64,000 nucleotides of DNA from Promethearchaeota archaeon (GTDB lineage: Archaea > Asgardarchaeota > Lokiarchaeia > Sigyniarchaeales > SOKP01): the NCBI GenBank assembly GCA_016839585.1, contig JAEOTZ010000015.1, forward strand, positions 1,000-64,999. The letters run 5' to 3'. The notes below the pieces were generated by a model. It saw only the letters and a list, made by a program, of their open reading frames with translations, was not told where the DNA came from and did no database searches. Below, piece after piece: positions 24,551 to 44,431 of this stretch; within the stretch, counting starts at the first letter, position 1; every line of letters starts with the position of its first letter. Both the position numbers and the translations under genes were made by a program.

Positions 24551-26023
24551 TTAACGTGTAACTAATCCACGTTTCTTAAACATTTCTTTTAATTCTGAAA
24601 TTATCTCTCGCCTTCCAGCTCCAGGACCAATTTCTACTTCAGGTAAGACCTTTTGCGGAGGAGGTGGAGGTTTAAGGGATTCTTTGTTAATAACATTTGG
24701 AGCAGATGGTGGAGTTGTTGAATCTGATATTGGTGGTGAATCTTTGGGGGATTGTTGTTTCAGAGATTTTTTAACTTTTTGAATTTTTTCTTTAGTTAAT
24801 TTTCCTTTTTCTTTTAGTTCTCTTGAATCTTCTTTTAAAGCAGGATGAGCAGACAATCGCTTTGGCGGACCAACAACTTTCGATTTTTTCTTTACTTTAG
24901 ATTCATCTTCTTTACACTTCTTTTTTTTTCTCTCTTTCATCTCTTGAATAGAAGAAATATAATCAATGGGAACTTTTTCAAAGGGAACAGAGAATAGAGA
25001 TTGTGAGATGTCCGAAGGTGATAATCTATACAATACCCTTTTAACTTCTGATAACTCTGATACAACTTTATCTAATAAATTTAAGTTGATGTCCAGTATT
25101 TTTTGAAGTTTTTTCTCAATATCAGGAATCATTAAATCTTTCTCTGGTTTTTCTTGAGATTTAGAAAAAATACTTTTAATACTTTTTACAATCTCCGGTT
25201 CATTAAGATAAAAATTGTAAATACTTGTCGGTATCATTTCAAAATTCCAAGGATTATTGGTATTACTAAAAACTTCTGATATTTTCCCTGTCAAATATTC
25301 AGCTTTAATCTGATAATCAGGATCCTTCACCATGTCAAAATCTGCTTTATTTAGCAATATTACAATATAAGGATTCTCATTTAGAAATTCAAGAATATTA
25401 ATTAAATCATTTAAGTATTTAACTGCTTCATCATATCTAGCATTATCTTGGGTATCAAATACAAATATAAGAACGTCTATTTGAATAAAGAATCTTTCAG
25501 GAGATTCAAGATACTCATTAATATTATCTTTTTGACCCCCTAAATCCCATAGAATTAAATCTAACTTATCTGATTGATATTCTTCTACATTAGCACCGAT
25601 TGTAGGTTCTAAATTAATCATATCATTATAATTATAGTCATTTAATAATCGGTTAATAAGAGATGTTTTTCCTGCATAATCTAAACCTGCAATTACAACC
25701 TTGAGTTTAGGTTTTTTTAGATAAAGATTTCTCTTATTCCATGCATTATTTATTAAGTTGAAAGCTATTAAAGCATTATTCAAACTAATTTCACTAATTT
25801 TTGTCTCTTTAGGGAGATTCTCATAATCAAAATTCTCTAATTTTGAGAGATCTCTTATGGTCAATATTTCAAACTCCTTAAATTTTTTTAAATCATCCTT
25901 ATTTATATTTTTTAGATTACTTAGCTGCAGATCTAATATGTCTTTTAAAGTCTCCGGGTAATAATCCAAATCTAAAAATCGATCACTGAAATACCTTATT
26001 ATAGTTCTAGCTGATTCTGACAT
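24551..26023 (-). CDS. Arf-family-like small GTPase with N- and C-terminal extensions
   Basis: G1 IAGLDYAGKTSL, switch I LEPTIGANVEE (Arf PTIGFNVE-like), G3 LWDLGGQ and G4 LLNKAD. A ~105 aa N-terminal extension precedes the core. A ~200 aa Lys/Pro-rich tail ends PPPPPQKV...REIISELKEMFKKRGLVTR. Confidence 0.8.
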   Translation of the reverse strand: MSESARTIIRYFSDRFLDLDYYPETLKDILDLQLSNLKNINKDDLKKFKEFEILTIRDLSKLENFDYENLPKETKISEISLNNALIAFNLINNAWNKRNLYLKKPKLKVVIAGLDYAGKTSLINRLLNDYNYNDMINLEPTIGANVEEYQSDKLDLILWDLGGQKDNINEYLESPERFFIQIDVLIFVFDTQDNARYDEAVKYLNDLINILEFLNENPYIVILLNKADFDMVKDPDYQIKAEYLTGKISEVFSNTNNPWNFEMIPTSIYNFYLNEPEIVKSIKSIFSKSQEKPEKDLMIPDIEKKLQKILDINLNLLDKVVSELSEVKRVLYRLSPSDISQSLFSVPFEKVPIDYISSIQEMKERKKKKCKEDESKVKKKSKVVGPPKRLSAHPALKEDSRELKEKGKLTKEKIQKVKKSLKQQSPKDSPPISDSTTPPSAPNVINKESLKPPPPPQKVLPEVEIGPGAGRREIISELKEMFKKRGLVTR

Positions 26024-26276: not shown

Positions 26277-26957
26277 ATGATTCAGAATAACAAATTTAAT
26301 GAAGAAACTGATGAAGAGGCAATGAATCTTTATAAGAATTTTAAAGAAGCATTAGAGAGATACCCATTTATCTTAATTATTGGAAAATATGATCATGTTT
26401 TAGGACCAAGAGCATTATATTCATCAGTTCATCTTAAAGGAGAAGCATTTATTAGAAATCTTCTCAGAGACGCTTTGAATACCAAAAATAAATTTGTTAT
26501 TTTAGATTTTAATCAATTTTATTCTCAGATTTACAAGATTGAAATTGAAGACACTTCTGCCCGAGGACGAAAACAAATATATGCTATTATTTTACTTCGA
26601 GATGTGGCATATCCGATAATACCAATTCTTCATTTTAAAAGAATAGGAATGATCTTTCATAGAATTGAGCATAAAAAGATTTTAGCTGATGATGCGATAG
26701 CATTTGAGAGTTTCTTTAAAGAAGTTAGAGATATTTATATGAATAAAGATGAGATTTTACCTCTTGAATCCATTAATATGCAGATAAGAAGTGGAATTAA
26801 TACCATACAAGGTTTCTGTGAATTAATTTTAGAACAAATCAGGAAGAATGTACAAGTTCCAAAACAAGATATAAGTAGTTTTATTGAAATGATGTTAGAT
26901 TCCTGTAAAGATATTATGGATGCTTTAGAAAAACCATTTTCAACAGCAAGTAAATAA
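26277..26957 (+). CDS. Hypothetical protein with C-terminal degenerate DHp-like helix lacking the phospho-acceptor His
   Basis: NMQIRSGINTIQGFCELILEQ aligns to the H-box MSHELRTPLNAIIGFAELL of the neighbouring kinase, with Gln in place of His. The N-terminal ~130 aa alpha/beta domain is unassigned. Confidence 0.6.
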   Translation: MIQNNKFNEETDEEAMNLYKNFKEALERYPFILIIGKYDHVLGPRALYSSVHLKGEAFIRNLLRDALNTKNKFVILDFNQFYSQIYKIEIEDTSARGRKQIYAIILLRDVAYPIIPILHFKRIGMIFHRIEHKKILADDAIAFESFFKEVRDIYMNKDEILPLESINMQIRSGINTIQGFCELILEQIRKNVQVPKQDISSFIEMMLDSCKDIMDALEKPFSTASK

Positions 26958-26984: not shown

Positions 26985-27866
26985 ATGAATCAAAACAAAA
27001 AAATTGTTCTCATAGGCCCTCCCAATGCTGGAAAATCTACAATTAAAAAAGTATTTTTCGAAAAAGAAAACCCAATTTCTCTTTTAAATAAACCACTATT
27101 GCCTTCAAGAGGAATTGGTTCAAATATTTATTCTATTTTCAAATCTAAATTAGGTGTTTTTGATTTAGCAGGACAAGAAAATCATTTTTGGTTTTCTAAT
27201 AAAGCTAATGAGATTTTTAGAGAATCTAATATTATTATTTGCATTTTTGATATAACAAATCATTTGGAATCAATTATCAGTTTCTTAGTAAATATATATA
27301 AAATAAAAAAAGAACTAAATTTATACAATTGCCAAATATCAGCCTTTTTGCATAAAATTGATCTAGTTAATACTTCTTACGTTAATCAAAAATTCAAAAT
27401 AGTAAAAGATTTTATTACATACCAACATCCAAAAGGAAGAGATTTTAAAATATATACAACCTCTATAACTAAAGATTTCTTTTTTGACACGTATTATATT
27501 TTTACAAAAATTTTGAACTCATTGTGTCAAAAAAACCTAATTCAAATTAGTATTAATGAATTAGAGAAATTAAAAACTGAAATACTTATCCTTCTAAAGA
27601 ATGAGGTTTTCGTTAAATATCATAAAAATAAATTGATACATCAGTTTGATCTTAGTTCAAATGAAGCAGAAAACCACTTAAAAAGATTGCAAAAATTAGG
27701 TTTTATAAAAACTTATGAGAATTTTAACTATTTCCTACTAAACGAAAGAGCTAAAATTCTTAAAAGTAGTATAAATAAAGAATTGAATAAAATTAATTAT
27801 GTCGGAATTAAAGAAGGTGTTGAATTGTTTCATACATTTCTTGACTTAACTAAAATGAATGTATGA
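26985..27866 (+). CDS. Rag/Gtr1-like small GTPase with C-terminal winged-helix-like domain
   Basis: G1 GPPNAGKST, G3 VFDLAGQE, and G4 FLHKIDL (HKxD as in Rag/Gtr GTPases rather than NKxD). The C-terminus NEAENHLKRLQKLGFIKTYENFNYFLLNERAKIL is wHTH-like. Confidence 0.75.
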   Translation: MNQNKKIVLIGPPNAGKSTIKKVFFEKENPISLLNKPLLPSRGIGSNIYSIFKSKLGVFDLAGQENHFWFSNKANEIFRESNIIICIFDITNHLESIISFLVNIYKIKKELNLYNCQISAFLHKIDLVNTSYVNQKFKIVKDFITYQHPKGRDFKIYTTSITKDFFFDTYYIFTKILNSLCQKNLIQISINELEKLKTEILILLKNEVFVKYHKNKLIHQFDLSSNEAENHLKRLQKLGFIKTYENFNYFLLNERAKILKSSINKELNKINYVGIKEGVELFHTFLDLTKMNV

Positions 27867-27914: not shown

Positions 27915-28455
27915 ATGACTTCTACGTTTAAGGATTATAAGATTTCAAATTATAAAGAATTATTTCTTGTTTTGTTTGAACAGATAATATCTACAATGAA
28001 ACCTTTACTTGATTCAAAACCTATCAATTTTAACCTAAAAGGTCTAAAAAAACAAAAATTACTTCAAGCTAATCGAAATAAATTTAAGCAAATAGTATAT
28101 AATCTATTAAATAATGCTATAAAATTTACTGAAAATGGGAGTGTTACTCTAGAATTAATAGAAAAAAAAGAACAGTGGGAATTTTCTGTTTCAGATACTG
28201 GGATAGGTATTTAAAAAAAAAGACTTTAATATAATATTTAGCGATTTTAAAAGAGTCAAATCAGATTATGTGGCTTCTAAACCTGGTAATGGACTTGGAC
28301 TTGCTCTCACAAAAAGGATTGTTGAATTACATGGGGGAAAAATTTGGTTTAAAAGTAAAATTGGAAAAGGGTCAACTTTTGTTTTCACTATTCCAAAAGA
28401 TTTTACCTCAAATAAATTTGGAATGAGTACAGAATATTTTTTAAAACTATTATAA
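27915..28455 (+). pseudogene. Histidine-kinase ATPase (CA) domain fragment interrupted by a +1 frameshift at an A9 run
   Basis: Frame A gives LLNNAIKFTENGSVTL...VSDTGIGI and then TAA at 28212-28214. Reading from 28213 in the +1 frame gives [46 protein letters not shown]. This is colinear with TGIGIARKDFPLIFKEFKRV...GTGLGLSLTKRLIELHGG of the kinase at 28487. No DHp domain lies upstream. Confidence 0.65.
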
Positions 28456-28486: not shown

Positions 28487-30634
28487 ATGGTTTACATCGA
28501 AAATAAAAAATCAAGAGAAAATGAAAACTTGTTAAAAAAACAAGATATCACTTTAACCAATTGGTTAGATTTAGAAACTCTAATTCTATCTATAGCATCT
28601 CGTTTCTTAGGAGATTTAGATCTTAATGAAGCTATTAATGGGTCTTTAAGAGATATAGGAATTATAAGTGAAGTTAGTCATTCATTTATATTTCTATTCA
28701 ATAAAGATAAATCTCAAATAAAAAATACACATGAATGGTGTAATGAAGGATGTGATTCCCAAATTAAGGCTCTCAGGAAATTAAAATCTAAAGACTTCCC
28801 ATGGTTAATCGAGCAACTTATAAGTGGAAAATCGATTCAGATAGATAATGTATTGAACTTACCTTATGAAGCTAGTAGTATAAAAGAGTTATTTGAAATT
28901 CTAAAAATAAAATCAATATTAATATTTCCCTTTTATGCAAAAAAGGAATTAAGTGGATTTATCGGTTTTGATGTAGTAGATAAAGCAAGGGTTTGGAGGT
29001 ATTTGGACTTTTCTATTTTGCGACTGTCCTCACAAATCATTGGAAACGCCTTAGAACGATTAAAAATTGAACAACTCTTAGAGGAATCAAAAGATAAATA
29101 CCGATTGATTATAGAAAACATTGACAACATAATATTTATCCTAGATTTAAGACTGAAATTTGAATATATAAATCAAAATACAGTTTTTAAATTATTAGGA
29201 TATAAAGAAAAAGAAATTTTAAGAAATTTTATTTTAAGTTTTGTCCATTCAAATGATTGTGATTTAATAGTAGAAAAATTAAGTCAAAAATCCCAGAATA
29301 ATAAATCCAATTTAGAAATTAGGCTTAGACATAAGAATGGAAAATTTATATGGTTTGAATGTGAAAGTCAGTCTTTCATTGATAATAATAAAAAATCTAA
29401 ATGGTTACTACTTCTAAGAGATATTTCAGATCGAAAAATTGCTGAAGAAAAATATAAAAGTTTATTTGAGAATTCTCCAAATGCTATATTATTAATTGAT
29501 TTTAAAGGTATTATCGTAGATTGCAATTCTACAGCAAAATATTTATTTAATCGTGATAAACAATATTTCATTAATAAATCAATTAATCAATTAAATGACA
29601 TATTTTCTTTAGATCTAAAAAAATATTTTAAAGATATTTTCCAAGCTTCTTTTAAGAATGATTTTCCTAAACCTCTTGAAGTTAAAATTAAAGAACAGGG
29701 AAATAATCTAGTTTGGTTCGAAGTCCAGGCTTCTTCAGTAAAACAAGCCCATAAAACACTAATTCAACTAATCTTTCAAGACATAAGTCAAAAGAAAAGA
29801 GCTGAAATTTTAGAAAAGAAATTCACAGAAGAATTAGAGAAAAAAGTAGACGAAAGAACACAGGAATTATATGATGCACTCGAAAAGCAGAATTTATACT
29901 TAGATCAAATCCTTAAATCTTCTCAATTTAAAACAGAATTTATGGCTACAATGTCACATGAATTACGAACCCCGTTAAATGCTATTATTGGTTTTGCAGA
30001 ACTACTTGTGGAAGGTTTTTATGGACAATTAAATGAAGAACAAAAAGAATTCATAATTGATATTAAGAGTTCGGCTGAACATCAATTTGAGATGATCAAG
30101 CACATTTTAGATATATCTAAAATTGAATCTGGGCAAATAACATTAAATGTCCAGCAATTTTCTTTAAATGCAATGCTAGAACAATTAAAATCAAGTTTAA
30201 GACCTTTATATAGTAAAAAAGGCTTAAAATTTAAGGTTAAAGGATTAGATACTGAAAAATATATTAATGCAGATCCTATAAGATTTAGAGAGATCTTATT
30301 AAATCTTTTAAGCAATGCGATAAAGTTTACGATGGATGGGAAGGTAACATTAAAAGTTGATGAAAAATATAATTATTGGCTATTTAAAGTAACAGATACA
30401 GGAATTGGAATTGCTCGAAAAGATTTTCCTTTAATTTTTAAGGAATTTAAAAGAGTTAATTCTCCTTATGTGCGTTCTGTTCCTGGAACGGGACTGGGCC
30501 TCTCATTGACAAAACGACTTATCGAATTACATGGAGGAGAAATCAGTTTTACAAGTCTTTTAGGAGCAGGTTCAACTTTTACATTTTCTATTTCCAAAAA
30601 ATTAGAAGAAAAATATCATAAATTAAAAGATTAA
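28487..30634 (+). CDS. GAF/PAS sensor histidine kinase
   Basis: N-terminal GAF-like region and two PAS-like blocks. H-box MSHELRTPLNAIIGFAELL, N-box LLSNAIKFT, VTDTGIGI, and G2 GTGLGLSLTKRLIELHGG. Confidence 0.9.
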   Translation: MVYIENKKSRENENLLKKQDITLTNWLDLETLILSIASRFLGDLDLNEAINGSLRDIGIISEVSHSFIFLFNKDKSQIKNTHEWCNEGCDSQIKALRKLKSKDFPWLIEQLISGKSIQIDNVLNLPYEASSIKELFEILKIKSILIFPFYAKKELSGFIGFDVVDKARVWRYLDFSILRLSSQIIGNALERLKIEQLLEESKDKYRLIIENIDNIIFILDLRLKFEYINQNTVFKLLGYKEKEILRNFILSFVHSNDCDLIVEKLSQKSQNNKSNLEIRLRHKNGKFIWFECESQSFIDNNKKSKWLLLLRDISDRKIAEEKYKSLFENSPNAILLIDFKGIIVDCNSTAKYLFNRDKQYFINKSINQLNDIFSLDLKKYFKDIFQASFKNDFPKPLEVKIKEQGNNLVWFEVQASSVKQAHKTLIQLIFQDISQKKRAEILEKKFTEELEKKVDERTQELYDALEKQNLYLDQILKSSQFKTEFMATMSHELRTPLNAIIGFAELLVEGFYGQLNEEQKEFIIDIKSSAEHQFEMIKHILDISKIESGQITLNVQQFSLNAMLEQLKSSLRPLYSKKGLKFKVKGLDTEKYINADPIRFREILLNLLSNAIKFTMDGKVTLKVDEKYNYWLFKVTDTGIGIARKDFPLIFKEFKRVNSPYVRSVPGTGLGLSLTKRLIELHGGEISFTSLLGAGSTFTFSISKKLEEKYHKLKD

Positions 30635-32169
30635 GTTGAATATTTTGTTCTTATTTCTTCAGCAATTTTAGCAATTTTCTTAAGTTCTTCGAAGTTATTT
30701 TCTAAAATTGATTTCATTACACTAACTTTCAATTTTTTAATTTTTTCGAGAGTAATAGAAAATTGTTTACTGATTTCATTATAAAGTCCATCAATCTTAC
30801 TGTAAAGATCTTTAGCCTGTTTATTATCAAAAATCTCTGAATTAATAACCTTGCTTTGATAAGAATCATTCAGCTCACTTAACCATTTTCTACCTTCCTT
30901 CATTGCTGGGTAAAGGTTGTCAATTTGTCCTGTTATAACACTTTTTTCAAATTCAGTCTTATATTTATCAAATAGATTCTTAAAACAGTTGTTAATCTTA
31001 TTTTCTATAGCTTTAATATTAACATCTGGATTCATAAAGATAGTAACTGTATAATCTTCAAACCCAAAAACATGCATTTTTAAGTTTGTTCCCTTTAAAC
31101 TAAATCCAGTTAAATCTTGAATATTTAACTCTAAAGAAAATTTTTCTAATGCACTAATGAACATTGGAATAAGATCTAGTTCAACTGGAACAATACTACC
31201 ATCTGTTGGAACATTATTAGAAATGAATTCCTCAAGTGCATTTTCAAATAATTCTAATTTTGATAAATTTTTTCCATCCTTATCTGCTATAAACGCACCT
31301 ATAAATGGAGGTAATTTTCGATCAAGAGATGATTCTGAAATTATAGATTCTTCTCCAACGTTTGTTAAAATACTTGAAGAAAATTTTTGAAAAATGTCTT
31401 TATAAATATTTTTACCCTTCTCTGTTAAACTAAGTAATTCTTTTCCTTCTACATTAGAAACTTCAATATGTTTTTTTCTAACTAGACTTTCTATTAAGTA
31501 ATTAATCAATTTTTTAGGGCGATTCAACTTCTCACTAAGATTTTCTTTTGGAAGAACTACCTCTTTATCAATTTGATGTATTAACTTTAAAGATTCATCA
31601 ATTATATTGAAAAGTAATCCCTCATCACTAATCAGATCATGAAGACAAATTTTCATTATATCAATAAAATAGGAAAATGTTTTTGTAAAGTATTTTTTTT
31701 TTAAACTAGTAAATAAGAAACTTAATAATTTTTCTTTTAAGAACTCACTTTTAATGATTGATTTATAATCCCTAATTCGCTTTTGACTCACTAAATCGAT
31801 CTTATGTAAAAATACATAGATGATTGTAGAGGGAGTTAAATTATTTCTTATTTCTATTACTTTTTTGATAAATGCTGTGATATCATCGAAATTTGTTGTA
31901 ATGTCAATAACGATTAAAATTAATTTACTATCGTAAAAAATAGCTTTCTCATCTGTGTCTAACCATCTTTCATTCTCTTGACCTGCTAAATCAAATATTC
32001 CAACATCTTGATTTATACCTGGTAATCTTAGTATCAGCGATTCTTCGCCATATGTGGGCTCTAAAGTATACTCTAACAATTTATTTGAATTTTCCCCTTC
32101 AAAAAAGATTTTACGTAATGTAGTTTTTCCTGCACCAGAGGGTCCAATGAAAATTATTTTTTTACTCAT
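30631..32169 (-). CDS. Rag/Gtr1-like GTPase + winged-helix + roadblock/longin-like module + coiled coil
   Basis: G1 GPSGAGKTT, G3 IFDLAGQE and G4 FLHKIDL. Mid-region LINYLIESLVRKKHIEVSNVEGKELLSLTEKGKNIY is wHTH-like. FIGAFIADKDGKNL, IPMFISALEKFSLEL and YTVTIFMNPD form an alpha/beta module. The C-terminus is heptad-rich. Its ATG overlaps the stop of the upstream gene by 8 nt. Confidence 0.75.
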   Translation of the reverse strand: MSKKIIFIGPSGAGKTTLRKIFFEGENSNKLLEYTLEPTYGEESLILRLPGINQDVGIFDLAGQENERWLDTDEKAIFYDSKLILIVIDITTNFDDITAFIKKVIEIRNNLTPSTIIYVFLHKIDLVSQKRIRDYKSIIKSEFLKEKLLSFLFTSLKKKYFTKTFSYFIDIMKICLHDLISDEGLLFNIIDESLKLIHQIDKEVVLPKENLSEKLNRPKKLINYLIESLVRKKHIEVSNVEGKELLSLTEKGKNIYKDIFQKFSSSILTNVGEESIISESSLDRKLPPFIGAFIADKDGKNLSKLELFENALEEFISNNVPTDGSIVPVELDLIPMFISALEKFSLELNIQDLTGFSLKGTNLKMHVFGFEDYTVTIFMNPDVNIKAIENKINNCFKNLFDKYKTEFEKSVITGQIDNLYPAMKEGRKWLSELNDSYQSKVINSEIFDNKQAKDLYSKIDGLYNEISKQFSITLEKIKKLKVSVMKSILENNFEELKKIAKIAEEIRTKYST

Positions 32170-33490
32170 TTTTTTCGATTTTTTTTGAGTTTAAATAATA
32201 CAATTTTGTCAAATTCATTCTAATTTGACCAACAAGTCCAATTAACTTATTACTACTAAGGGATTCAGATATACATATTAAATTCTTAAGATTAAATCTT
32301 GGCAGGTTTAAATAATTCATAATTATATTAAGATTCATTGAACCTGAAATAATGAAATGTTCAATATTATCATTTAAAGACATTTCTTCAAAAGTTTGAT
32401 TTAATTGTGCAACAAGTTTATGAGAATGGTTTATGATTGTGGTATTGAAATCTTTAGACATAGCTTGAGCTATTATATTATCATTTTCGTTAGTTATAAA
32501 AAACATCGTTTTAGGTATATCAGTTATCAAATCATTCAATATTTCTTTTAAATAAATCGTCTCCCTTGAAAAGCTACTTAATATATCGTAGAATGCGTTA
32601 TATAAGCTATAAATTAAATTTGGATATATGCTAGTATAGAAAATTGGATATTTAAATTGATTTTTAATCAATTGAGTTATTTCAGAAAATTCATTTTTTC
32701 TATCTTCTTTCCTAATTAAATCGATTTTATGTATAAACAGCTTTATATTTATATCAAATGATTTTTCTTTAATAATATCAGAAATTCTCTTGATATCGTG
32801 AATAATCTCCTGTTGATTTGAAATCCATGTCGGATAATCAAAAAGATAAATAACTACATCAGTTCCCTCAAATGCCAAGATATGATCGTTATCATTCTCA
32901 TTCTCTAATAAATAGTTTAATTCCTGCCCAGAGGTATCGAATAAACCTAAAGTTAAATCTAACCATGAATACACTGAAGGAGATATTCCACGAGTAGGTT
33001 CAAGGGGATTATAGATTAAATCTTTGGGATTAAATCCTTCAAAAATGATTTTTTTAATACTTGTTTTTCCAGTTCCAGCTCTGCCTAATAATAAGATCTT
33101 CTTTGAAGTTGTTTTCTTAAAAAATTTGTCAATATTTCCTTGAAAAAAATCCTTTCTCTTATCTTTTTTTTTTTTTATAATATCTTTAGAAAATTCTAAG
33201 AATTGTTTCTTGATGTTAAATAGATTAAGTCTTTCTTTCTCTTCAATAATAAGCGTAATTATTTCATATCCAACTTCAGGAACACGGGATTTATCACAGT
33301 ATGATAAAATTGTTTGATTATCATAGTTAATCTCAATTAATTCTTCTTTATTAAAATCTTCATCATAAGCATGAGTCATATATATTTTATTAATCAGATG
33401 ATCTGAAAGTTTCAGGTTCTCGGGATATTTAAAATCTAAGATAGACCCGATTTTTTGATCCCAACTAAAAACTGCTAATCCTAAAATCAT
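32162..33490 (-). CDS. Longin-like N-domain + Rag/Gtr1-like GTPase + C-terminal Roadblock-like domain
   Basis: The N-terminus MILGLAVFSWDQKIGSILDFKYPENL is shared with ORFs 34297 and 44432. G1 GRAGTGKTS, G3 LFDTSGQE and G4 FIHKIDL. The C-terminus TMFFITNENDNIIAQAM, IEHFIISGSMNLNIIMNYL and NLICISESLSSNKLIGLVGQI is Roadblock-like. Confidence 0.75.
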   Translation of the reverse strand: MILGLAVFSWDQKIGSILDFKYPENLKLSDHLINKIYMTHAYDEDFNKEELIEINYDNQTILSYCDKSRVPEVGYEIITLIIEEKERLNLFNIKKQFLEFSKDIIKKKKDKRKDFFQGNIDKFFKKTTSKKILLLGRAGTGKTSIKKIIFEGFNPKDLIYNPLEPTRGISPSVYSWLDLTLGLFDTSGQELNYLLENENDNDHILAFEGTDVVIYLFDYPTWISNQQEIIHDIKRISDIIKEKSFDINIKLFIHKIDLIRKEDRKNEFSEITQLIKNQFKYPIFYTSIYPNLIYSLYNAFYDILSSFSRETIYLKEILNDLITDIPKTMFFITNENDNIIAQAMSKDFNTTIINHSHKLVAQLNQTFEEMSLNDNIEHFIISGSMNLNIIMNYLNLPRFNLKNLICISESLSSNKLIGLVGQIRMNLTKLYYLNSKKIEKNE

Positions 33491-33682: not shown

Positions 33683-34057
33683 TTGGTATATATGACAAAA
33701 AATGTGTATGTTATTGAGGATAATGAAAAAAATATGAAATTATTCAGAGCGATTTTAAAATTAATACCCGATTTAGAAATTTTTGAAGAAACCCGTGGAG
33801 ATCTAGGATTAGAATTAATAAAATCTGGAGAACCAGATTTGATTATCTTGGATATACAACTTCCTGAAATGAGTGGTATTGAAATTTGTGAAGAACTTAG
33901 GAAAATTGAGAAATTTAAAAGCACACCAATTATTGCAGTTACTTCCTTTGCTATGAAAGGAGATAAAGAAAGGATATTATCAGCAGGTTTTAATGAATAT
34001 ATATCAAAACCCATAAAAGTAAAAGAATTTAGAGAATTGGTAAACAGTTATATCTAG
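33683..34057 (+). CDS. Single-domain CheY-like response regulator
   Basis: VYVIEDNEKN, DLIILDIQLPEMSGIE, IIAVTSFAMKGD and YISKPI. At 124 aa it is a receiver domain only. Confidence 0.9.
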   Translation: MVYMTKNVYVIEDNEKNMKLFRAILKLIPDLEIFEETRGDLGLELIKSGEPDLIILDIQLPEMSGIEICEELRKIEKFKSTPIIAVTSFAMKGDKERILSAGFNEYISKPIKVKEFRELVNSYI

Positions 34058-34296: not shown

Positions 34297-35355
34297 TTGA
34301 AAGGAATTGTGATTTTAAATCTAGATAAAAAATCAGAACCGACCATAAATGCTCAATATCCACAAAATATTAGTGACGAATTAGGGGTTACAGATTCAAT
34401 GCTGGCAACTGTCTTCGATGAACATAAAAGTGTAAGGACAGGTCCTAATTATCTTGAAATGCAAATAAAACGGGATCTTAGTGTAGCAAGTTTCTTTACT
34501 GGTCATTCCTCAAAACACTTTATAGGGAAAGGAGATCATGTTATTACCATCTTTCTTTCTGACGAGGATATCATCCCTAGAAATTTTGAAGGCCAAGTTA
34601 GAAGAATCGCTTTTGAATTATTGCCTAAAAGAAAGGAAAAAGACTTTAAAAATCTATTAGCAAAATACTATGAATTATTAAATAAAGGAGAATTAGATGC
34701 ATATTGGCAGGAACGACAGGAATTGGAGCAAGATATAGTTGGAAAAAAAGAAAGAATAGATGATCTTGCTCAAAAAGTCTCTATGTTAGTATCTGATAGA
34801 TCAGAACATCTTAGAAACGTTCAAGCATTAAAAAATGAAGTAACTGAGTTATATAATAAATTAGAAAATTGGAGTTTACAAATGGCAGAACTTAATGAAT
34901 ATAATGCAAATTTAACAGCAAAAACAAGAGAATTAACTAAATTAACAAATAGTCAAAAACAGGAATTAGAACAAAAGGATGATCAGATCATAAAATTAAG
35001 AAAAATCTTAAGAGATAAAGATGAAATTGAGGAAGGAGCCGAAAAATTACTTGAACAAATTAAAAGATTTAAAGCTGAAAATGAAAATCTTAAAAACGAG
35101 ATAGAGAAAATGAATAAAACAAATAAAGATTTAAAATTTCAAGTTTTAAAATCAAATCGAGAGAGAGATTCCCATTTAGATACAATTACAGATCTAAAAT
35201 TAGATATGAGAAATCTAAAAGGACAAATATCATCTGAAGGGACTTTAAAAAATAAATTGAATGAAGAAATTGTTAATTTGAAAAAAGATTTAAAGGTTAT
35301 AAGGAGAGAAAGAGACCATTATCAAAAATTAGTGAAAAAACATAACCTCCTTTAA
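34297..35355 (+). CDS. Longin-like N-domain protein with ~210 aa C-terminal coiled coil
   Basis: N-terminal IVILNLDKKSEPTINAQYPQNI and LSVASFFTGHSSKH are homologous to ORF 44432 (GFIITEWTEDRGLAVTLNYPESL, SNVASFFTGMESERP). The C-terminal half is heptad-rich (LKNEVTELYNKLENW, KRFKAENENLKNEIEKMNK). No TM segment. Confidence 0.7.
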   Translation: MKGIVILNLDKKSEPTINAQYPQNISDELGVTDSMLATVFDEHKSVRTGPNYLEMQIKRDLSVASFFTGHSSKHFIGKGDHVITIFLSDEDIIPRNFEGQVRRIAFELLPKRKEKDFKNLLAKYYELLNKGELDAYWQERQELEQDIVGKKERIDDLAQKVSMLVSDRSEHLRNVQALKNEVTELYNKLENWSLQMAELNEYNANLTAKTRELTKLTNSQKQELEQKDDQIIKLRKILRDKDEIEEGAEKLLEQIKRFKAENENLKNEIEKMNKTNKDLKFQVLKSNRERDSHLDTITDLKLDMRNLKGQISSEGTLKNKLNEEIVNLKKDLKVIRRERDHYQKLVKKHNLL

Positions 35356-37249: not shown

Positions 37250-38827
37250 TTGCCACGTAAAAAAATTATAATTGTGTGCTTAATAGGATTAATTGCAGTT
37301 GGTTCATTAGCATATGTATCATTTCTCTTTCTTTCACCCACACCAACACCTTCTAAACAATGGCTCGAAAATCCTAATTTTGATTCACCAATAGAACCGG
37401 TTTGGTTTTGGACTAATGGTACCCTAGGGGATAATTCAGATATAGACGCAACAACAAGCCCCGGTCAAATCAATCTTAGAGTTTTAGGAGAAAAGCAAAC
37501 GGTTACATTAATTTCAGGAACTCCAAATATGTCAAGATCACCAGGTTGGAAAAAAGTTCAAAATGGAATATATCAATATCCTGATACTGCTATCATCAAT
37601 TCTCAAGGATGTTATGTATCGCATGATTGGGCAGAAGATACAAACCAATTCCCAAGTGTTCACTTTAGAACTAACGTTAGTACAAATGTAGATATGTCAG
37701 ATTATCAAATTACTTCTGTAATGCTTAATGTTGAATTTAATGCTTCTATTGATGTTAATGTTGATACTCCAAATGATAATGGAGCAGGTTCAGATTTTTG
37801 GGAATATTTTGGAACAGGAGATTATATTGAATTTTATACTGAGATTTCTGATATTAATTACATTGAATCCTATGTTGTAGCATATAATAGAACAAGATAT
37901 TTAGGACAGAATAGCCCTCAATATACAATAATTAATAACAGTTATCTTTTTACTTATAATCAAAGTATTTTAATTGATGCTTTAAACACAGCACTCAAAA
38001 AAGATCCTAACTATTCTAATTTTACAATAATATTAGGAATAAATATATATTCGGAAGATAATATACAGGGTACTGATCCAGATGATTATGATGATTTGTA
38101 TATAAAAACTTGTAATTTAACAATAACTTACAAGAAAATTGTTAATGAATTTACCACTATCTCTTGGAATCAGATTAGTGATCCAATTGAAGGTAAAAAC
38201 CTTAGAATAAGTAAAGCTAATTTTAATTTTAAATATATGATTAATAAACTTTGGCCTGATCAAGCTCCACTTTCAGAATTAAGATTTTATATTAACAATA
38301 AATTGTACAGTGAAGAAACAATTAAATTAATTTCTGCTAATATGTCTTTTAAAGAAGTAAAAGATGGCGGATTTGATGTAACCACTTATCTGGAGAAAGA
38401 TATTGATATTTTGATTTCAATTGAACTGTTTTTGAAAGAGACTTTTGAATTAGAAGAAATATTTACTATATCATTTGATGATGTGTATCTTTATATAAAA
38501 ATAGTTGAAATTGAGGCAGAAATGAGTCCAATAGTTTACCTTTTGGGAGGTGCAATTGTTGGGCTTTTGGTAGCTTTTGGATTGTATTTTAAAATTTTTC
38601 AATATCCCCCATTAGTAAGAAAGATTAGGAAAATAAATTCAAAAATTAGAAAAGGAAGAAAAACAAAGCCTTTATTAATTGCTCAACGGCAAACTATTGT
38701 AGAGAATAATTTCCAAGAAACAATAAAAGCCCTAAATATAGCAACCATTGAAGATAAAAAGCTTAATAATTCTGATAAAAAAGAACAAGATAAAATAATT
38801 AAAAAGGAGGGAGAAATTTCTCTCTAA
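37250..38827 (+). CDS. Bitopic sequon-rich surface protein, paralog 1, with conserved basic cytoplasmic tail
   Basis: N-terminal hydrophobic segment IIIVCLIGLIAVGSLAYVSFLF and many N-x-S/T sequons. The ectodomain ends ISFDDVYLYIKIV. C-terminal TM PIVYLLGGAIVGLLVAFGLYF is followed by the tail YPPLVRKIRKINSKIRKGRKTKPLLIAQRQTIVENNFQETIKALNI. Confidence 0.75.
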   Translation: MPRKKIIIVCLIGLIAVGSLAYVSFLFLSPTPTPSKQWLENPNFDSPIEPVWFWTNGTLGDNSDIDATTSPGQINLRVLGEKQTVTLISGTPNMSRSPGWKKVQNGIYQYPDTAIINSQGCYVSHDWAEDTNQFPSVHFRTNVSTNVDMSDYQITSVMLNVEFNASIDVNVDTPNDNGAGSDFWEYFGTGDYIEFYTEISDINYIESYVVAYNRTRYLGQNSPQYTIINNSYLFTYNQSILIDALNTALKKDPNYSNFTIILGINIYSEDNIQGTDPDDYDDLYIKTCNLTITYKKIVNEFTTISWNQISDPIEGKNLRISKANFNFKYMINKLWPDQAPLSELRFYINNKLYSEETIKLISANMSFKEVKDGGFDVTTYLEKDIDILISIELFLKETFELEEIFTISFDDVYLYIKIVEIEAEMSPIVYLLGGAIVGLLVAFGLYFKIFQYPPLVRKIRKINSKIRKGRKTKPLLIAQRQTIVENNFQETIKALNIATIEDKKLNNSDKKEQDKIIKKEGEISL

Positions 38828-38851: not shown

Positions 38852-40423
38852 TTGAATCAAAAAATAAGCAAAATTTTTAGCATTATGATCTTATTTGTTC
38901 TTATTACAATCACTTTTCAATATCGTAATTTTTATCAGAATAAAGGGAATTTAGATAATGTAAATTTAGAAAAGGAAATTAATATTTCAGCAGGAGGAGA
39001 GTGGTTAAAAAATAACGATTTTTCTTCTGATGAATATTGGAATTTTATTGAAGGTGAGAAAGGAGATTGTTCCGCAATTAATTCAAGTACAATTGGAGGT
39101 ACAGCAAATATTGAGATCTTAGGAGAAATGAAAAATATAACATTAATTTCAGAAACACCAAATAAATCTAGTTCTCCTGCTTGGGATATATTTACAAATA
39201 AGAATTTTTTATTACCTAAGACAAGAGAGATTAATGATGATGGATGTTATGTATCACATTTTTTGGATGAAAATATTGGTGGCGATCAAATAAATAACTA
39301 TCCCAGTATTCATTTTAAAAAGAACATCAGTTTAACTGACGATATGTCAAAATATGTAATAACTTCAGTTTCGCTGAATGTTATTGTAAATGCAAGTGTA
39401 GATGCGGATGTAGATACTCCAAATGATGATTATTCTGGTCCAGATCCTGATCAAAAAGCAATTCTAGGTGATTCCATTACCTTTTATGTTGAGATTACTG
39501 ATTTAGAAAATAGCTATACCTTTCGTTTAGCAGAAAATAAAACCACATATTTGGGACAACAAAGAACTGGTTACCCAACAATTTTAAACATAACAGACAG
39601 TCCGTTAGATAATAAAGATCAGCAATTTTTAATATCTGCTTTAACTTCAGTTTTTGAATCAGATAACCACAATTTTACTATCATATTAGGAATGGATATT
39701 TATTGTGAAGATAATGATACAGGAGGAGATCAAGATACATGGAACTATTTAATTATTAAAAGTTGTGATTTAATTATTACCTATGAAAGAAAAATTGAAA
39801 AATTCACTTCTATATCATTAAATCAAATAGGCAATAAAATAATTGGAACTAATATCCAAATTAAAGCAGGATCATTTAATTTTAAATATAAAATAGATCA
39901 GTCTTGGCCAAGCGATTTATCTCCATTCTCAGAAGTCAGAACCCTACTTAATAATAATCCATATGTAGAGACCATCAAATTATCTTCTGCTAATGGTTCC
40001 TTTCAAGATGCTAAAGCAGGTGGATATGATGTTAAATCCCTAATTTTAAAAGATGTTAATATATCCGTTTCAATTGAATTCTATATAGCAAATACATTCG
40101 CTCTTAATAGAACAATAACTATTTCAATTGATGATGTTTCCCTTGTTATTTCTTATGTTTCTATTAAACCTGGGATTGATATGACTCCATATATTATTGG
40201 ATTAACTTCTGGAATTATTGGACTTGTTACTGCTTTTAGCTTATATCAATTTCATTTCAAATATCCTCCATTTGTAAGAAAAATAAGAAAATTAAAAAAA
40301 AAAGTTGGAAAGGCAAAAAAACTAAAACCAATTATTGTTAGTGCACATAATGAGATTATTAAAAATAATTTTCAAGATCAAATTAAAATTTTAAATATAG
40401 AATTACCTCAACTGAAAAAATAA
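38852..40423 (+). CDS. Bitopic sequon-rich surface protein, paralog 2, with conserved basic cytoplasmic tail
   Basis: Colinear with paralog 1: GCYVSH, YPSIHF, NASVDADVDTPNDD, NFTIILGMDIY and ISIDDVSLVISYV. C-terminal TM, then the tail YPPFVRKIRKLKKKVGKAKKLKPIIVSAHNEIIKNNFQDQIKILNI. Confidence 0.75.
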   Translation: MNQKISKIFSIMILFVLITITFQYRNFYQNKGNLDNVNLEKEINISAGGEWLKNNDFSSDEYWNFIEGEKGDCSAINSSTIGGTANIEILGEMKNITLISETPNKSSSPAWDIFTNKNFLLPKTREINDDGCYVSHFLDENIGGDQINNYPSIHFKKNISLTDDMSKYVITSVSLNVIVNASVDADVDTPNDDYSGPDPDQKAILGDSITFYVEITDLENSYTFRLAENKTTYLGQQRTGYPTILNITDSPLDNKDQQFLISALTSVFESDNHNFTIILGMDIYCEDNDTGGDQDTWNYLIIKSCDLIITYERKIEKFTSISLNQIGNKIIGTNIQIKAGSFNFKYKIDQSWPSDLSPFSEVRTLLNNNPYVETIKLSSANGSFQDAKAGGYDVKSLILKDVNISVSIEFYIANTFALNRTITISIDDVSLVISYVSIKPGIDMTPYIIGLTSGIIGLVTAFSLYQFHFKYPPFVRKIRKLKKKVGKAKKLKPIIVSAHNEIIKNNFQDQIKILNIELPQLKK

Positions 40424-40693: not shown

Positions 40694-43600
40694 ATGAAGA
40701 AGAATAATATTAGGGTTAAAGGTCTGATAATATTACTTTGCATAGTTTTATCTTCGTTTCCACTTTCTTATTTGCTTCCAATAAGTACTTCAAATGATTC
40801 GAATGATGTTGAAGGGATTCCCCCTTCTGAAGAAATACCCAATATTTTTACTTCTGATACTTTAGCTACTGATAATTCTTTCACAGGTATAGGTGCTCCT
40901 TGGAACGTAACTCATTATGCTAATTATACAAAATCAAATTTAGGAGTTAGTTTTTATAATAATTCTTATGATGATACTCATGCAAAAGTAGAATTATATG
41001 GATGGAATGGATACCAATTAAATTCTACAATAAAGAATTTATACGATACACGAAATTGGATTAATGGGACTTTTCATTGTGGTTCCTATGGAGGATCACC
41101 ATCTGGATCTGATGATAGTGAATATGTTGCTAATTGGACATTCCATGATGGAGATATTGATGACCCTAATCCTACAAGTGGAAATTATTTTGATGGTTCA
41201 ACTTCTATATCTGATTATGAAGATAGCTTGGAATTAAGGGTTGATGAATATGGTAGTGGTAATTATGATGTTGGGGATAAATGTTGGTGGGAAACTAGTA
41301 TTCAAATAGATAGAGGGGATGTAGATGAAGCATGGTTAAATTTTGCAGTATATCCAAAATATAGTGATGGTTATAATAACCACTGGGTACTACAAATTAT
41401 TATCAATGGTAAAATCATTTGGGGTACTGGTCTTCAATCAATGATAGATGCATCTGGTAATTCTAATGGTCAATGGTATAATCCATATCCTATCTACTTA
41501 GATGGTAATGATGAACAATTATTTCCTGAAGGAGTTAAAAATCTCAATGTTACTTTCGAATTTAAAAGAGTTAGTGGAACTGCTCCGGGTGCTTATTGGG
41601 ATTACTATACTGTACTCTTTGATAATGTTTCGTTAATTGTAAAATCTAAAGCAAAACCATCTCAACTAGAATTGCAATTAAACAATGAAGATGTAAAAGA
41701 TAATGTTAATTATGGTGAAGGTAATCTTGGTATTACAGGTAATTGGAATGGAAGTATCCAATCATCAGTAGTTGCTAATTTTAGTAGTGATCTGAATTGG
41801 CCTTTAACTTATGAAGAAGACGGGAGTTGGATAAGTTATAAAATAGAACTTGAGACAGATTTGAATTTGTTTACAAATAAATTTAGCCCTGAAACCTATT
41901 ATACAGCTGATCCAGATCTAAATTATCAAGGCTCAGCTTTTATTGTATCTAATAATAGCAATGTGAATTGGACAACGTATGCACATATGGAGATTCCAGC
42001 AGGATATGAAGAAACAAATATGACTGTTGAATACTCTTCAGATTACAATTTAATAGGCGTATTCTTCTCTCAAAATCCTAATTCTATTTCTCAAACTACT
42101 ATAACAGAATATGGAAACAAAAAGATTTTAAATATTCCAGTAAGTTCCATAACAAGTAATACAAATGGATTTTGGAAGTTAACAGCAGTATCACCTAATT
42201 ATTGTTCAGAGTTAAATATGTATGCCGGTCCTACTGCTACTGGACCGTGGGTGCTTAATAATAAATTCCTAAGTGGAGAATATATTAACATTACTGGAGA
42301 CATTTATAATTCCGCTTTGGTTTCTGGATATATTCAACAAACCAAGGCCCAGCTTCAAATACGATTTCCAAATGGTTCGATATGGACATCAAGAACTCAA
42401 ACAAAACTAGTTGATAATACCGGAACGGTCTATTTTGATCCTATTATGATCCCTGATAATGTTCCAAATTATAAAGCAGGAGAATATGATGCGGTTATCA
42501 CTTGGAATAACTCATATTCATCCTTTGGTTCAAATGAAACAGGGATTATTTATAAAAAGTTTACAGTAATCCATGATTCTCTTCTTTATCCTGATGAAGG
42601 TGTATATTTCATTGAAAATGTAATTGACGATAGAATAATTAATATTAAAGTATCATTTAGAGATTTAATAGATGGTACAGCTATTGCAAATGCATATGTA
42701 TATACAGATTTTACAGGAGTCGATGAATCATTAATCCAAACTAGTCCAGGATTTTATTTATATGAATTTAATGCTTCTAAAGCTGAGGCAGGAAACAATA
42801 CTGTAACGATTTATGCTAATTCAAGCTATTATTTGAATAAAACCATAAATATTACAATTGATGTAATTAAAGAGACAATTTTGACGGTTGAAACTGATTT
42901 TTTCACTACTCCTTGGAAACAAAATTTTACTGTGCGATTTAATTATACAGAAAAAAATAATCCTCTAAATTGGATTGATACAACAGACATTACTATTGAT
43001 GAATGGCTTGGTGATTATCATTTAACACAACCTAGCGTTGGGCATTATGAATTAGAATGTAATACATCTGCTTATGCTGCACTCACACTTCAATCCTTCA
43101 TTATTTCAATAGATCCGTACAAATATGAACCCCAATCTGTTCTAATTAGAGTCCAAATTACTGAATTATCGTCTTCTTTAAAATTATTATTAAATGGTAA
43201 TGAAACATCTAATAATGGTAAAATTACAGTTGAACTTGATGCCGTCATAAATGTGTCTATAACTTTCAGTGATCAGTTAACAGGTAAACATCTACCAAAT
43301 GCAACAGTTAGTTTAATAGGAATAGGACCAAATAGATATTTTGATGAAAAAAATAACTATTACAATTATAGTATAAAAGCTACTGATTTAGGTGAAGGAA
43401 TTACTGTATTAACTGTATTTGCAGAAGTCCTTAATTATCAGCCTCAAACCATACAATTTTGGATTGAAGTGGGTAAAAGATCCTCGCAATTACAATTATT
43501 TTTAGACGGTGATCTTAAAACAGATGATCTAGTCATCTATGAAATTACAATAAAAGAATTCTTAAATATAACTGTGAAATACATGGATAATGGATCACAA

Positions 43601-44431
43601 CATATTACCAATGCAACAGTACAATTGACAGTACAATTGATAGGAGGGAAATTAAATTTCAATTTAACAGAACATACTGGCTTAGGGCAATATTATATCC
43701 CAGGCGGTCTTGATACAACTATTTTAGGTACTGGAGCATATGAATTTTCAATTATCGCTTATGCACCCAATTATATACCTAAGACTACAGGAGGAGTAAT
43801 TACTATCACTAAAATAGTTGGAACTATTAGCCGAGAAGATGGAGGTGCTCAAATAGAAGTTGATGTCGGAGAAGATGTATTATTAAAAATTGTCTTAAAA
43901 GATCCTTCAAATAATACTATAAAGGGTGCCACTGTAACATATAGTTGGGCTTTTGGACAGGGAGAACTTGATGATCCTGATAATGATGGGATTTACAATG
44001 TAACTATATTTGATGTTCCAGAAGGAGTTCGTGACATAACAATAAATGCTATTATCGGAGATGATTATGCTTTTCAAGAGTATAAAATAACATTGATAGT
44101 AAGTAGACCATCAGTATCTCCTGGACCTAATTTAGGTTGGCTTATTTCTTTATTAGTTTATGGATTTATTGGTGTAATAGTAGTTGTTGGTACGATTTTT
44201 ACCCTATATATTAAACGTTGGCGATTCCCGCCTTTAGTTAGGAAGATAAGAGCTCTAAGGAAAAAGGTTAGTAAAGCAAAAAAGACAAAACCAGTTATGA
44301 TAAATAAGCGAGAAGAGATTATAAAAAATAATCTGCAAGATAGTGTGAAAATTTTAAGTTTAGAATTAATACAACCTGAGAAAATTGATAAAATTGAAAA
44401 TTTTAATATAAAAAAAGAGGAAGTGAATTAA
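40694..44431 (+). CDS. Large (1245 aa) bitopic sequon-rich surface protein, paralog 3, with the same cytoplasmic tail
   Basis: Signal/anchor LIILLCIVLSSFPLSYLL. An N-terminal jelly-roll-like module ends VLFDNVSLIVKS. Long beta-rich (Ig-like repeat-like) region with dense N-x-S/T sequons. TM LISLLVYGFIGVIVVVGTIFTLY is followed by the tail FPPLVRKIRALRKKVSKAKKTKPVMINKREEIIKNNLQDSVKILSL. Confidence 0.75.
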   Translation: MKKNNIRVKGLIILLCIVLSSFPLSYLLPISTSNDSNDVEGIPPSEEIPNIFTSDTLATDNSFTGIGAPWNVTHYANYTKSNLGVSFYNNSYDDTHAKVELYGWNGYQLNSTIKNLYDTRNWINGTFHCGSYGGSPSGSDDSEYVANWTFHDGDIDDPNPTSGNYFDGSTSISDYEDSLELRVDEYGSGNYDVGDKCWWETSIQIDRGDVDEAWLNFAVYPKYSDGYNNHWVLQIIINGKIIWGTGLQSMIDASGNSNGQWYNPYPIYLDGNDEQLFPEGVKNLNVTFEFKRVSGTAPGAYWDYYTVLFDNVSLIVKSKAKPSQLELQLNNEDVKDNVNYGEGNLGITGNWNGSIQSSVVANFSSDLNWPLTYEEDGSWISYKIELETDLNLFTNKFSPETYYTADPDLNYQGSAFIVSNNSNVNWTTYAHMEIPAGYEETNMTVEYSSDYNLIGVFFSQNPNSISQTTITEYGNKKILNIPVSSITSNTNGFWKLTAVSPNYCSELNMYAGPTATGPWVLNNKFLSGEYINITGDIYNSALVSGYIQQTKAQLQIRFPNGSIWTSRTQTKLVDNTGTVYFDPIMIPDNVPNYKAGEYDAVITWNNSYSSFGSNETGIIYKKFTVIHDSLLYPDEGVYFIENVIDDRIINIKVSFRDLIDGTAIANAYVYTDFTGVDESLIQTSPGFYLYEFNASKAEAGNNTVTIYANSSYYLNKTINITIDVIKETILTVETDFFTTPWKQNFTVRFNYTEKNNPLNWIDTTDITIDEWLGDYHLTQPSVGHYELECNTSAYAALTLQSFIISIDPYKYEPQSVLIRVQITELSSSLKLLLNGNETSNNGKITVELDAVINVSITFSDQLTGKHLPNATVSLIGIGPNRYFDEKNNYYNYSIKATDLGEGITVLTVFAEVLNYQPQTIQFWIEVGKRSSQLQLFLDGDLKTDDLVIYEITIKEFLNITVKYMDNGSQHITNATVQLTVQLIGGKLNFNLTEHTGLGQYYIPGGLDTTILGTGAYEFSIIAYAPNYIPKTTGGVITITKIVGTISREDGGAQIEVDVGEDVLLKIVLKDPSNNTIKGATVTYSWAFGQGELDDPDNDGIYNVTIFDVPEGVRDITINAIIGDDYAFQEYKITLIVSRPSVSPGPNLGWLISLLVYGFIGVIVVVGTIFTLYIKRWRFPPLVRKIRALRKKVSKAKKTKPVMINKREEIIKNNLQDSVKILSLELIQPEKIDKIENFNIKKEEVN

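Follow-up and report, generated by a model that had tools for sequence, protein, structure and literature searches.

Does a pair of adjacent Rag-like GTPase genes in an archaeon encode two parts of a single switch, and if so, to what might that switch be connected? The question is raised by a 64,000-nucleotide stretch of Promethearchaeota archaeon contig JAEOTZ010000015.1 (assembly GCA_016839585.1, positions 1,000 to 64,999), the whole of which we call the window. It is AT-rich, with about 24-38% G+C when measured over 2-kb windows, and on its minus strand lie two overlapping genes, here named P1 and P2, whose products each carry a GTPase domain joined to further domains. In eukaryotes, Rag GTPases serve TORC1 as its upstream nutrient switch; we know of no TOR, Ragulator or lysosome context in archaea. 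We propose that P1 and P2 constitute a conserved Lokiarchaeia operon of two paralogous Rag/Gtr GTPases that would act as a hetero-oligomeric switch wired to a neighbouring phosphorelay, a reading to which, taken as a whole, we give a probability of roughly 0.55.

P1 (32162..33490, minus strand) is an open reading frame (ORF) of 442 amino acids with a predicted longin, Rag-like G domain and roadblock, in that order. P2 (30631..32169, minus strand) is an ORF of 512 amino acids in which a Rag-like G domain precedes a predicted winged helix, a longin-like module and a helical tail. The domain orders in the AlphaFold2 models fit, respectively, the codes LGR and GXLX used in the supplement of Tran et al. 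(PMC10933270). Neither gene is a chance ORF, because homologues match P1 down to E = 2.6e-258 and P2 has a 100% identical database protein together with about 240 relatives of the same length. An earlier note on this DNA, made from the sequence alone, had described two minus-strand genes overlapping by 8 nt, and this is indeed what is found: the overlap, ATGAGTAA at 32162..32169, holds both the P2 start codon (ATG, 32167..32169) and the P1 stop codon (TAA, 32162..32164), and the minus strand reads AAAAATGAGTAAAAAA across the junction.

Both products are paralogous GTPases of the Rag/Gtr family. The G domain of P1, at residues about 126-306 (32573..33115, minus strand), has the motifs GRAGTGKT (33062..33085), PTRG, DTSGQE (32921..32938), HKID (32720..32731, within FIHKIDL) and TSI (32627..32635), all placed by mapping from the translation. 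The corresponding motifs of the P2 G domain, at residues 1-177 (31639..32169, minus strand), are GPSGAGKT (32122..32145), PTYG, DLAGQE (31975..31992), HKID (31795..31806, within FLHKIDL) and TSL (31702..31710). The motif residues are invariant in alignments of 51 P1 homologues and 53 P2 homologues. Since all nucleotide-binding motifs are kept, both proteins should bind and hydrolyse GTP. No lipid-modification motif is present in either protein: their C-termini (...KKIEKNE in P1, ...IRTKYST in P2) are without cysteine, and their N-termini (MILG, MSKK) are without a glycine at position 2.

Several lines of evidence place these G domains among the Rags. PF04670 (Gtr1_RagA) is the best Pfam model for P1 and P2 alike, above its curated cut-off, with 97.4 bits over residues 131-347 of P1 (next-best GTPase family, 18.1) and 53.6 bits over residues 4-145 of P2 (Ras, 36.8); it is also matched by 51/51 P1 homologues and 52/53 P2 homologues. 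When P1 was compared with the PDB using phmmer, the top 20 matches were all RagA, Gtr1, Gtr2, RagC or RagD (best 5.4e-15), and for P2 the best match was Schizosaccharomyces pombe Gtr1 (1e-6), with Rabs also among the matches. Profiles built from the two G-domain families were then scored on a reference set of ten GTPases, each confirmed by exact look-up with source names, that covered RagA, RagC, Arf, Sar, Rab, Ras, Rho, Ran and MglA. The P1 profile gave 85.5 bits to P2, 73.2 to RagA, 43.0 to RagC and at most 15.3 to every other reference; the P2 profile gave 100.5 bits to P1, 55.5 to RagA, 27.5 to RagC and at most 16.8 to every other reference. P1 and P2 are thus both nearer to RagA than to RagC, and nearer to each other than to either. 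MglA scored -0.6 bits with the P1 profile and 8.7 bits with the P2 profile, so that the G domains are not MglA-like.

In the alignment, the HKID and TSI/TSL motifs of P1 and P2 stand opposite HKMD/TSI in RagA and HKVD/TSI in RagC, and all four proteins have in common a longer switch II region with an insert. A neighbour-joining tree (178 columns, 40 sequences, 300 bootstrap replicates, Kimura distance) was rooted with MglA as outgroup, so the position of MglA there is not independent evidence. The archaeal Rag-like proteins formed one clade with RagA and RagC in this tree, to the exclusion of Arf, Sar, Rab, Ras, Rho, Ran and MglA, with a moderate bootstrap support of 64%. The earlier note had reported a P-loop, DxxGQE and HKxD in both products and assigned them to the Rag/Gtr family, proposing that their G domains be placed in a phylogeny with RagA/C, MglA and other GTPases. 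The mapped and invariant motifs, the Pfam, phmmer and profile results, structural matches described below and the tree, with which the profiles concur, all agree with that assignment.

The AlphaFold2 model of P1 (mean predicted local distance difference test score, pLDDT, 83.5; predicted template modelling score, pTM, 0.72) portrays a canonical Rag body, G domain plus roadblock, with an extra N-terminal longin domain. The N-terminal domain, residues 1-118 (33137..33490, minus strand), has the predicted longin-type order beta-beta-alpha-beta-beta-beta-alpha-alpha. The C-terminal domain, residues 309-433 (32192..32566, minus strand), has the predicted roadblock order alpha-beta-beta-alpha-beta-beta-beta-alpha and comes directly after the G domain, as it does in Rags. 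Consistent with this layout, the phmmer alignment to yeast Gtr1 extends through the C-terminal domain (query 127-398, Gtr1 6-297), and a Foldseek search of the PDB put chains of RagA, Gtr1, RagC and Gtr2 on top, with E-values as low as 5e-16 and alignments of about 315 columns that take in the G domain and roadblock. The same list also holds 8yl2 and 8zla, described as Rag-like GTPases of Lokiarchaeota, the former a homotetramer and the latter a monomer. When these two solved proteins of about 300 amino acids were compared with P1 by sequence, no match was obtained at E <= 0.01.

The AlphaFold2 model of P2 (pLDDT 77, pTM 0.41) indicates a different set of additions to a Rag-like G domain. Residues 182-262 (31384..31626, minus strand) are predicted to form a winged-helix domain in the order helix, strand, helix, helix, two wing strands, helix. 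Weak Pfam matches among the 53 P2 homologues (DUF6293_C in 15, HTH_34 in 14, HTH_45 in 8) and a match of P2 to the winged helix-turn-helix NCBIfam model PRK14165 (E 0.0059) back this fold. A low-confidence, disordered linker (residues 262-288) leads from the winged helix to a longin-like, roadblock-related module of the dimerisation type, at residues 289-413 (30931..31305, minus strand), with the predicted order beta-beta-alpha-beta-beta-beta-alpha-alpha. Block-mean pLDDT in this module is mostly 80-93, with a single dip to 56. The order is thus that of a longin, without the N-terminal helix of a roadblock, and both the winged helix and the linker intervene between the G domain and the module. 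Long helices at 417-442, 449-489 and 493-510, possibly a coiled coil, make up the C-terminal tail (residues 417-510; 30640..30921, minus strand). With Foldseek, P2 likewise matched Gtr1/RagA on top (4.7e-13) and aligned to full-length Rags over 400+ columns spanning the G domain and the C-terminal module, at a high root-mean-square deviation owing to differently placed domains.

At the level of sequence the small domains are elusive. Profile searches of Pfam and the PDB gave no match for the P1 longin domain or the P2 module, and extending the profiles to the N-terminal domain of a neighbouring 352-amino-acid protein (described below) likewise yielded nothing meaningful in either database; comparing the three with one another by hhalign gave matches that were weak and short, with probabilities of at most 18%. 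Because the sequence profiles matched nothing, the longin and roadblock calls rest on the topology of the AlphaFold2 models and on Foldseek matches to whole Rags, and the P1 longin call on predicted topology. As predicted topologies, the longin-GTPase-roadblock layout that had been put forward for P1 holds up, as do the winged helix and the roadblock/longin-like module (in longin order) put forward for P2; the coiled coil put forward there corresponds to the predicted helical tail.

We then asked how widely the pair is kept. A locus scan with one genome per species returned 40 loci, MK-D1 not being among them. Their source labels read Promethearchaeota/Promethearchaeia or unclassified "uncultured archaeon", with the exception of one labelled Odinarchaeota; the NCBI phylum Promethearchaeota is the former Lokiarchaeota and takes in Helarchaeales. 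Counting gene order relative to full-length P1, P2 lies directly downstream on the same strand in 33 of 37 loci, is lacking in three and is truncated in one. Between the P1 stop and the P2 start, spacing mostly falls in the range -8 to +17 nt, a few loci reaching as much as +38 nt, and the 8-nt overlap itself recurs in three loci. It is therefore the tight same-strand adjacency that is conserved and not the overlap, and the coupling suggested by the earlier note stands as an operon-like pairing. This arrangement persists across proteins whose identity between loci is about 42-66% for P1 and P2.

Beyond these loci, the P1-type family is small worldwide. When 1.84 billion representatives were searched with a profile, 846 clusters came up at E <= 1e-3 and 94 at E <= 1e-30; by a rough count, some 35 clusters reach full LGR length. 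Three cluster representatives (P0393, P0485 and P0416) have names or assembly records; P0393 and P0485 are Promethearchaeota, and no GXLX gene follows P0485 or P0416. The P0485 locus (L042, 1..13335; GCA_054681365.1, BAAHGB010000040.1), from a more distant member of the Promethearchaeota, carries six Gtr1_RagA genes, three of which lie in one co-directional run ending in a receiver-only regulator, as well as histidine kinases, a V4R protein and an Arf/Ras-like GTPase. Given this gene content, clusters of Rag-like genes tied to two-component genes look like a recurring theme. Extra paralogues were also observed beside the pair itself, namely a second P2-like gene upstream of P1 in L029 (4350..5813) and longin-less G-roadblock relatives of P1 in L021 (4402..5310), L024 (10156..10872) and L033 (11219..12133), which points to repeated local duplication around the pair.

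Two-component genes flank the pair in the window as well. Divergent from P1 is a gene for a receiver-only response regulator (33683..34057, plus strand; Pfam Response_reg, 88.9 bits), whose likely true start is the ATG at 33692 and whose product appears to keep the acidic pocket, phospho-acceptor aspartate, threonine and lysine of functional receivers. Of 36 evaluable loci, 24 have a receiver gene divergent from P1 at a distance of no more than 600 nt, and in 8 further loci it occupies another position in the locus. Its identity across loci (62-85%, mostly 73-85%) is higher than that of P1 or P2. Convergent on P2 is a gene for a histidine kinase of PAS-PAS-HisKA-HATPase_c architecture by Pfam (28487..30634, plus strand); the two genes have no spacer, their stop codons overlapping by 4 nt at 30631..30634. 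Of 33 evaluable loci, 25 have a PAS histidine kinase adjoining the pair: in 18 of these it is convergent after P2, and in the other 7 it precedes P1 by about 20 nt on the same strand, such that kinase, P1 and P2 form a one-strand series with intervals of about 20 nt.

From these features a mechanism can be proposed. P1 and P2 would be made together by co-translation and would assemble through their roadblock/longin-type modules into a hetero-oligomeric switch of two GTPases. The longin domain fused in cis to P1 may serve as a built-in GTPase platform of the kind that, by analogy, MglB, FLCN-FNIP, Nprl2-Nprl3 and TRAPP supply in trans. RomR and the Frz receivers of Myxococcus act on MglA by protein contact, and the receiver-only regulator could, in a similar manner, provide the input by which the switch is wired to the phosphorelay. 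A precedent for oligomerisation exists in PDB 8yl2, described as a homotetrameric RagA-like GTPase from Lokiarchaeota.

Several points weigh against this proposal. The clade uniting the archaeal proteins with RagA and RagC is moderately supported, by neighbour-joining with two eukaryotic Rags only, and the small domains match no Pfam or PDB profile at the sequence level. In three loci (L011, L020 and L036) the P1 orthologue is flanked by the receiver gene and a histidine kinase and has no P2 beside it, so P1 is able to exist without a neighbouring P2; more distant LGR paralogues likewise have no GXLX gene after them. Adjacency and co-expression do not prove a P1-P2 complex. Rag-style pairing through C-terminal roadblock domains is not guaranteed, going by the models, because the P2 module has no roadblock N-terminal helix and is set apart from the G domain by a winged helix. 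Finally, the link to two-component signalling is drawn solely from gene neighbourhood, in genomes rich in both gene classes.

The topology of the P2 module bears on a different stoichiometry, in which co-transcribed P1 and P2 would form a 2:2 assembly and not a Rag-style 1:1 heterodimer: P1 would homodimerise through its roadblock, and the P2 module would pair with the N-terminal longin of P1, as in FLCN-FNIP and Nprl2-Nprl3. The longin order of the module suits such an arrangement, as does its best, weak profile match, which is to the P1 longin domain (local hhalign E 0.0013 over 39 columns) versus E 0.039 for the P1 roadblock, and the lokiarchaeal RagA-like protein of 8yl2 is itself described as a homotetramer. 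However, the hhalign probabilities are low (18% and 1%), making the preference not significant, and Foldseek places the P2 module on the C-terminal domain of Rags. We regard the 2:2 assembly as unlikely.

Alternatively, the two proteins could be independent switches, with P1 forming homo-oligomers through its roadblock and P2 through its longin-like module and tail, co-expressed for one pathway in which they act, for example, in sequence. The absence of an adjacent P2 in 3 of 36 loci and the other LGR paralogues that stand alone are in keeping with this, as are the homodimers predicted by Tran et al. (PMC10933270) for the longin-containing GTPases of MK-D1, in which the best matches of P1 and P2 have distant accession numbers. 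Yet the tight junction is retained in 33 of the 37 loci across proteins only 42-66% identical, and each protein has a dimerisation-type module. On this evidence independence is unlikely.

A bolder form of the proposed hetero-oligomer has the phosphorelay, comprising the PAS kinases and the receiver-only regulator, feeding directly into the two Rags, with output through the P2 winged helix or a coiled-coil neighbour. We consider this direct coupling decidedly unlikely; if true, signalling of prokaryotic and of eukaryote type would be combined in one system within the archaea most closely related to eukaryotes, and the paired-Rag design would have been invented independently.

The P2 winged helix could instead make P2 a GTP-controlled DNA-binding regulator that supplies the output missing from the receiver-only regulator, with P1 as its partner or regulator. 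Besides the predicted winged-helix topology and the flanking response regulator without an output domain, the weak matches of P2 homologues to the DNA-binding winged-helix families HTH_34 and HTH_45 point in this direction, and truncated P2 homologues are annotated "predicted transcriptional regulator" by the Joint Genome Institute. All of the winged-helix matches, however, fall below the curated cut-off, the helix that would serve in recognition shows no conserved basic or polar character (consensus xLxxxLIExLxxK), and winged helices often serve protein contacts. A role of P2 in DNA binding is therefore very doubtful.

The tree also bears on how the pair relates to the eukaryotic Rags. The P1 family grouped with longin-less G-roadblock paralogues (99%) and the P2 family with G-winged-helix paralogues (93%). 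RagA grouped with RagC in 76% of replicates and the archaeal set stood by itself in 87%, from which the archaeal duplication would be independent of the RagA/RagC split and not its precursor. Support for joining the P1 group to RagA was 0.7% and for joining the P2 group to RagC 0%; together with the higher score of RagA over RagC in both profiles, this speaks against one-to-one orthology of P1 with RagA/Gtr1 and of P2 with RagC/Gtr2. The case for a lineage-restricted duplication within the archaea is of moderate strength, because the method is simple and eukaryotic sampling minimal, and it agrees with Vargova et al., who describe the two eukaryotic Rag lineages as paralogues predating the last eukaryotic common ancestor and nested among Asgard RagGtr sequences. 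That the pair is the archaeal heterodimeric precursor of RagA/B-RagC/D, as the earlier note proposed for what are indeed paired, divergent paralogues of the Rag family, is consequently very improbable, given these bootstrap values, the closeness of P1 and P2 to each other and to RagA before RagC, the nesting found by Vargova et al., and the origin of the related loci in a single Asgard phylum save for the one Odinarchaeota-labelled record.

How, then, does the proposed hetero-oligomeric switch compare with known systems? P1 and P2 share with eukaryotic RagA/B-RagC/D and Gtr1-Gtr2 the same G family, with HKxD in place of NKxD, a TS(I/L) G5 motif and the switch II insert; neither group has a lipid-anchor motif, P1 has its roadblock directly behind the G domain as Rags do, and there are two paralogues, here encoded together. 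Unlike eukaryotic Rags, P1 has an added N-terminal longin and P2 a winged helix, a module in longin order and a helical tail; the P1/P2 duplication is independent, the neighbours are two-component system genes, and the P1-P2 heterodimer is putative. The wiring proposed for P1 and P2 resembles, by analogy, the MglA-MglB-RomR/RomX module of Myxococcus, which combines a small GTPase, a roadblock-fold partner and phosphorelay control through receiver proteins. It differs in that P1 and P2 have G domains unlike that of MglA and carry their roadblock/longin modules in cis, and in that the receiver link is suggested by neighbourhood only. In having a longin-fold platform beside a small GTPase, P1 recalls the longin-based GTPase-activating protein (GAP) and guanine nucleotide exchange factor complexes FLCN-FNIP, Nprl2-Nprl3, Mon1-Ccz1 and TRAPP (Levine et al. 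2013, PMC3747258), from which it differs in the covalent fusion of its longin to the GTPase and in showing no detectable sequence similarity.

The closest relatives are the Asgard RagGtr proteins of Lokiarchaeum and MK-D1, which belong to the same phylum and family and have the same architecture codes. By 2016, Lokiarchaeum had been reported to encode Rag homologues as well as small GTPases with fused roadblock and longin domains (reviewed in PMC4917890). For MK-D1, Tran et al. 2024 (PMC10933270) modelled every small GTPase, with architecture codes including LGR, LG, GR and GXLX, and predicted dimers mediated by roadblock and longin domains for MK-D1 relatives, those of the longin-containing GTPases being homodimers. 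They also state that the GTPase genes of MK-D1 do not, as a rule, share operons with roadblock or longin genes, and described one operon with two Rag-like genes and a predicted Gtr1/Gtr2-like heterodimer. We considered whether this operon is the P1-P2 pair and rejected the match, as their supplement suggests two GR proteins with consecutive accessions (WP_147663117/118) and not LGR plus GXLX. According to the supplement text, read by optical character recognition and hence approximate, the closest MK-D1 G domains are those of WP_147663498.1 (GXLX) for P2, at 47% identity, and WP_147664208.1 (LG) for P1, at 36%, whose accession numbers are not adjacent. The cis-fused longin that had been called unusual is thus nothing out of the ordinary among Asgard archaea, such fusions being known from Lokiarchaeum (PMC4917890) and from the LGR, LG and GXLX proteins of MK-D1 (PMC10933270).

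P1 and P2 are therefore members of an already described Asgard group, to which the conserved pairing and the two-component context are added. Our literature search, whose coverage was incomplete (for example, for the publication of 8yl2/8zla), found no description of a conserved P1-P2 operon or of its two-component neighbourhood. The locus offers a concrete, conserved and experimentally tractable pair of Rag paralogues, each with a dimerisation-type module and both beside a phosphorelay, and the conserved pairing and two-component context make it a good experimental entry point. If P1 and P2 assemble, the paired-Rag design arose at least twice, and it becomes possible to ask to which signal such a switch responds in an archaeon; otherwise they are one more case of the large, already described expansion of longin/roadblock-fused small GTPases in Lokiarchaeia.

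The pair and its two-component neighbours belong to a signalling island that occupies 21-35 kb of the window and also holds another kinase, a HisKA-receiver protein and the proteins described below; several of its genes recur near the pair in other genomes. Beside the receiver gene is the gene for the 352-amino-acid protein (34297..35355, plus strand), which consists of a conserved N-terminal domain of about 130 amino acids and about 220 amino acids of coiled coil, gave coiled-coil-type matches only, and is present next to the receiver gene in 16 related loci. Its N-terminus opens like the P1 longin (…G-I/L-x…YPxN…), with an hhalign E-value of 0.0018 over 25 columns only, which is not significant, and a profile search of the PDB with its N-terminal domain gave nothing.

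On the other side of the pair, a third Rag-like GTPase of 293 amino acids (26985..27866, plus strand; Pfam Gtr1_RagA, 52.9 bits) has a G domain and a winged-helix-like C-terminus. In the tree, the family of this GTPase and the P2 family are sisters (93% jointly), and its orthologues recur in related loci. Just 27 nt upstream is a gene for a 226-amino-acid protein (26277..26957, plus strand), an adjacency also seen in L015 and L026. Residues 73-111 of this protein give a sub-threshold match to Pfam Folliculin (E 0.0062; 16.8 bits versus a cut-off of 23.3). Folliculin is a Rag GAP in eukaryotes, and for that reason such a match beside a Rag-like gene, weak as it is, is a lead. The island further encodes a 490-amino-acid protein (24551..26023, minus strand) whose Arf/Rag-like G domain (Arf 82.5 bits, Gtr1_RagA 81 bits) is preceded by about 100 additional amino acids at the N-terminus and accompanied by a Pro/Lys-rich C-terminal tail; it recurs by the P1-P2 pair in L010, L014, L024, L025 and L033.

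Two short ORFs on the plus strand (27915..28214 and 28270..28455) resemble a split histidine-kinase ATPase domain. They lie shortly before the intact kinase gene (28487..30634) and probably represent the remains of a kinase or a gene broken by a frameshift. Further along the window, three plus-strand genes (37250..38827, 38852..40423 and 40694..44431) encode large paralogous proteins, each with an N-terminal signal or membrane segment and one C-terminal membrane helix, that share a basic cytoplasmic tail, PP[LF]VRKIRxLxxKxxKAKKxKP, followed by a conserved helix.

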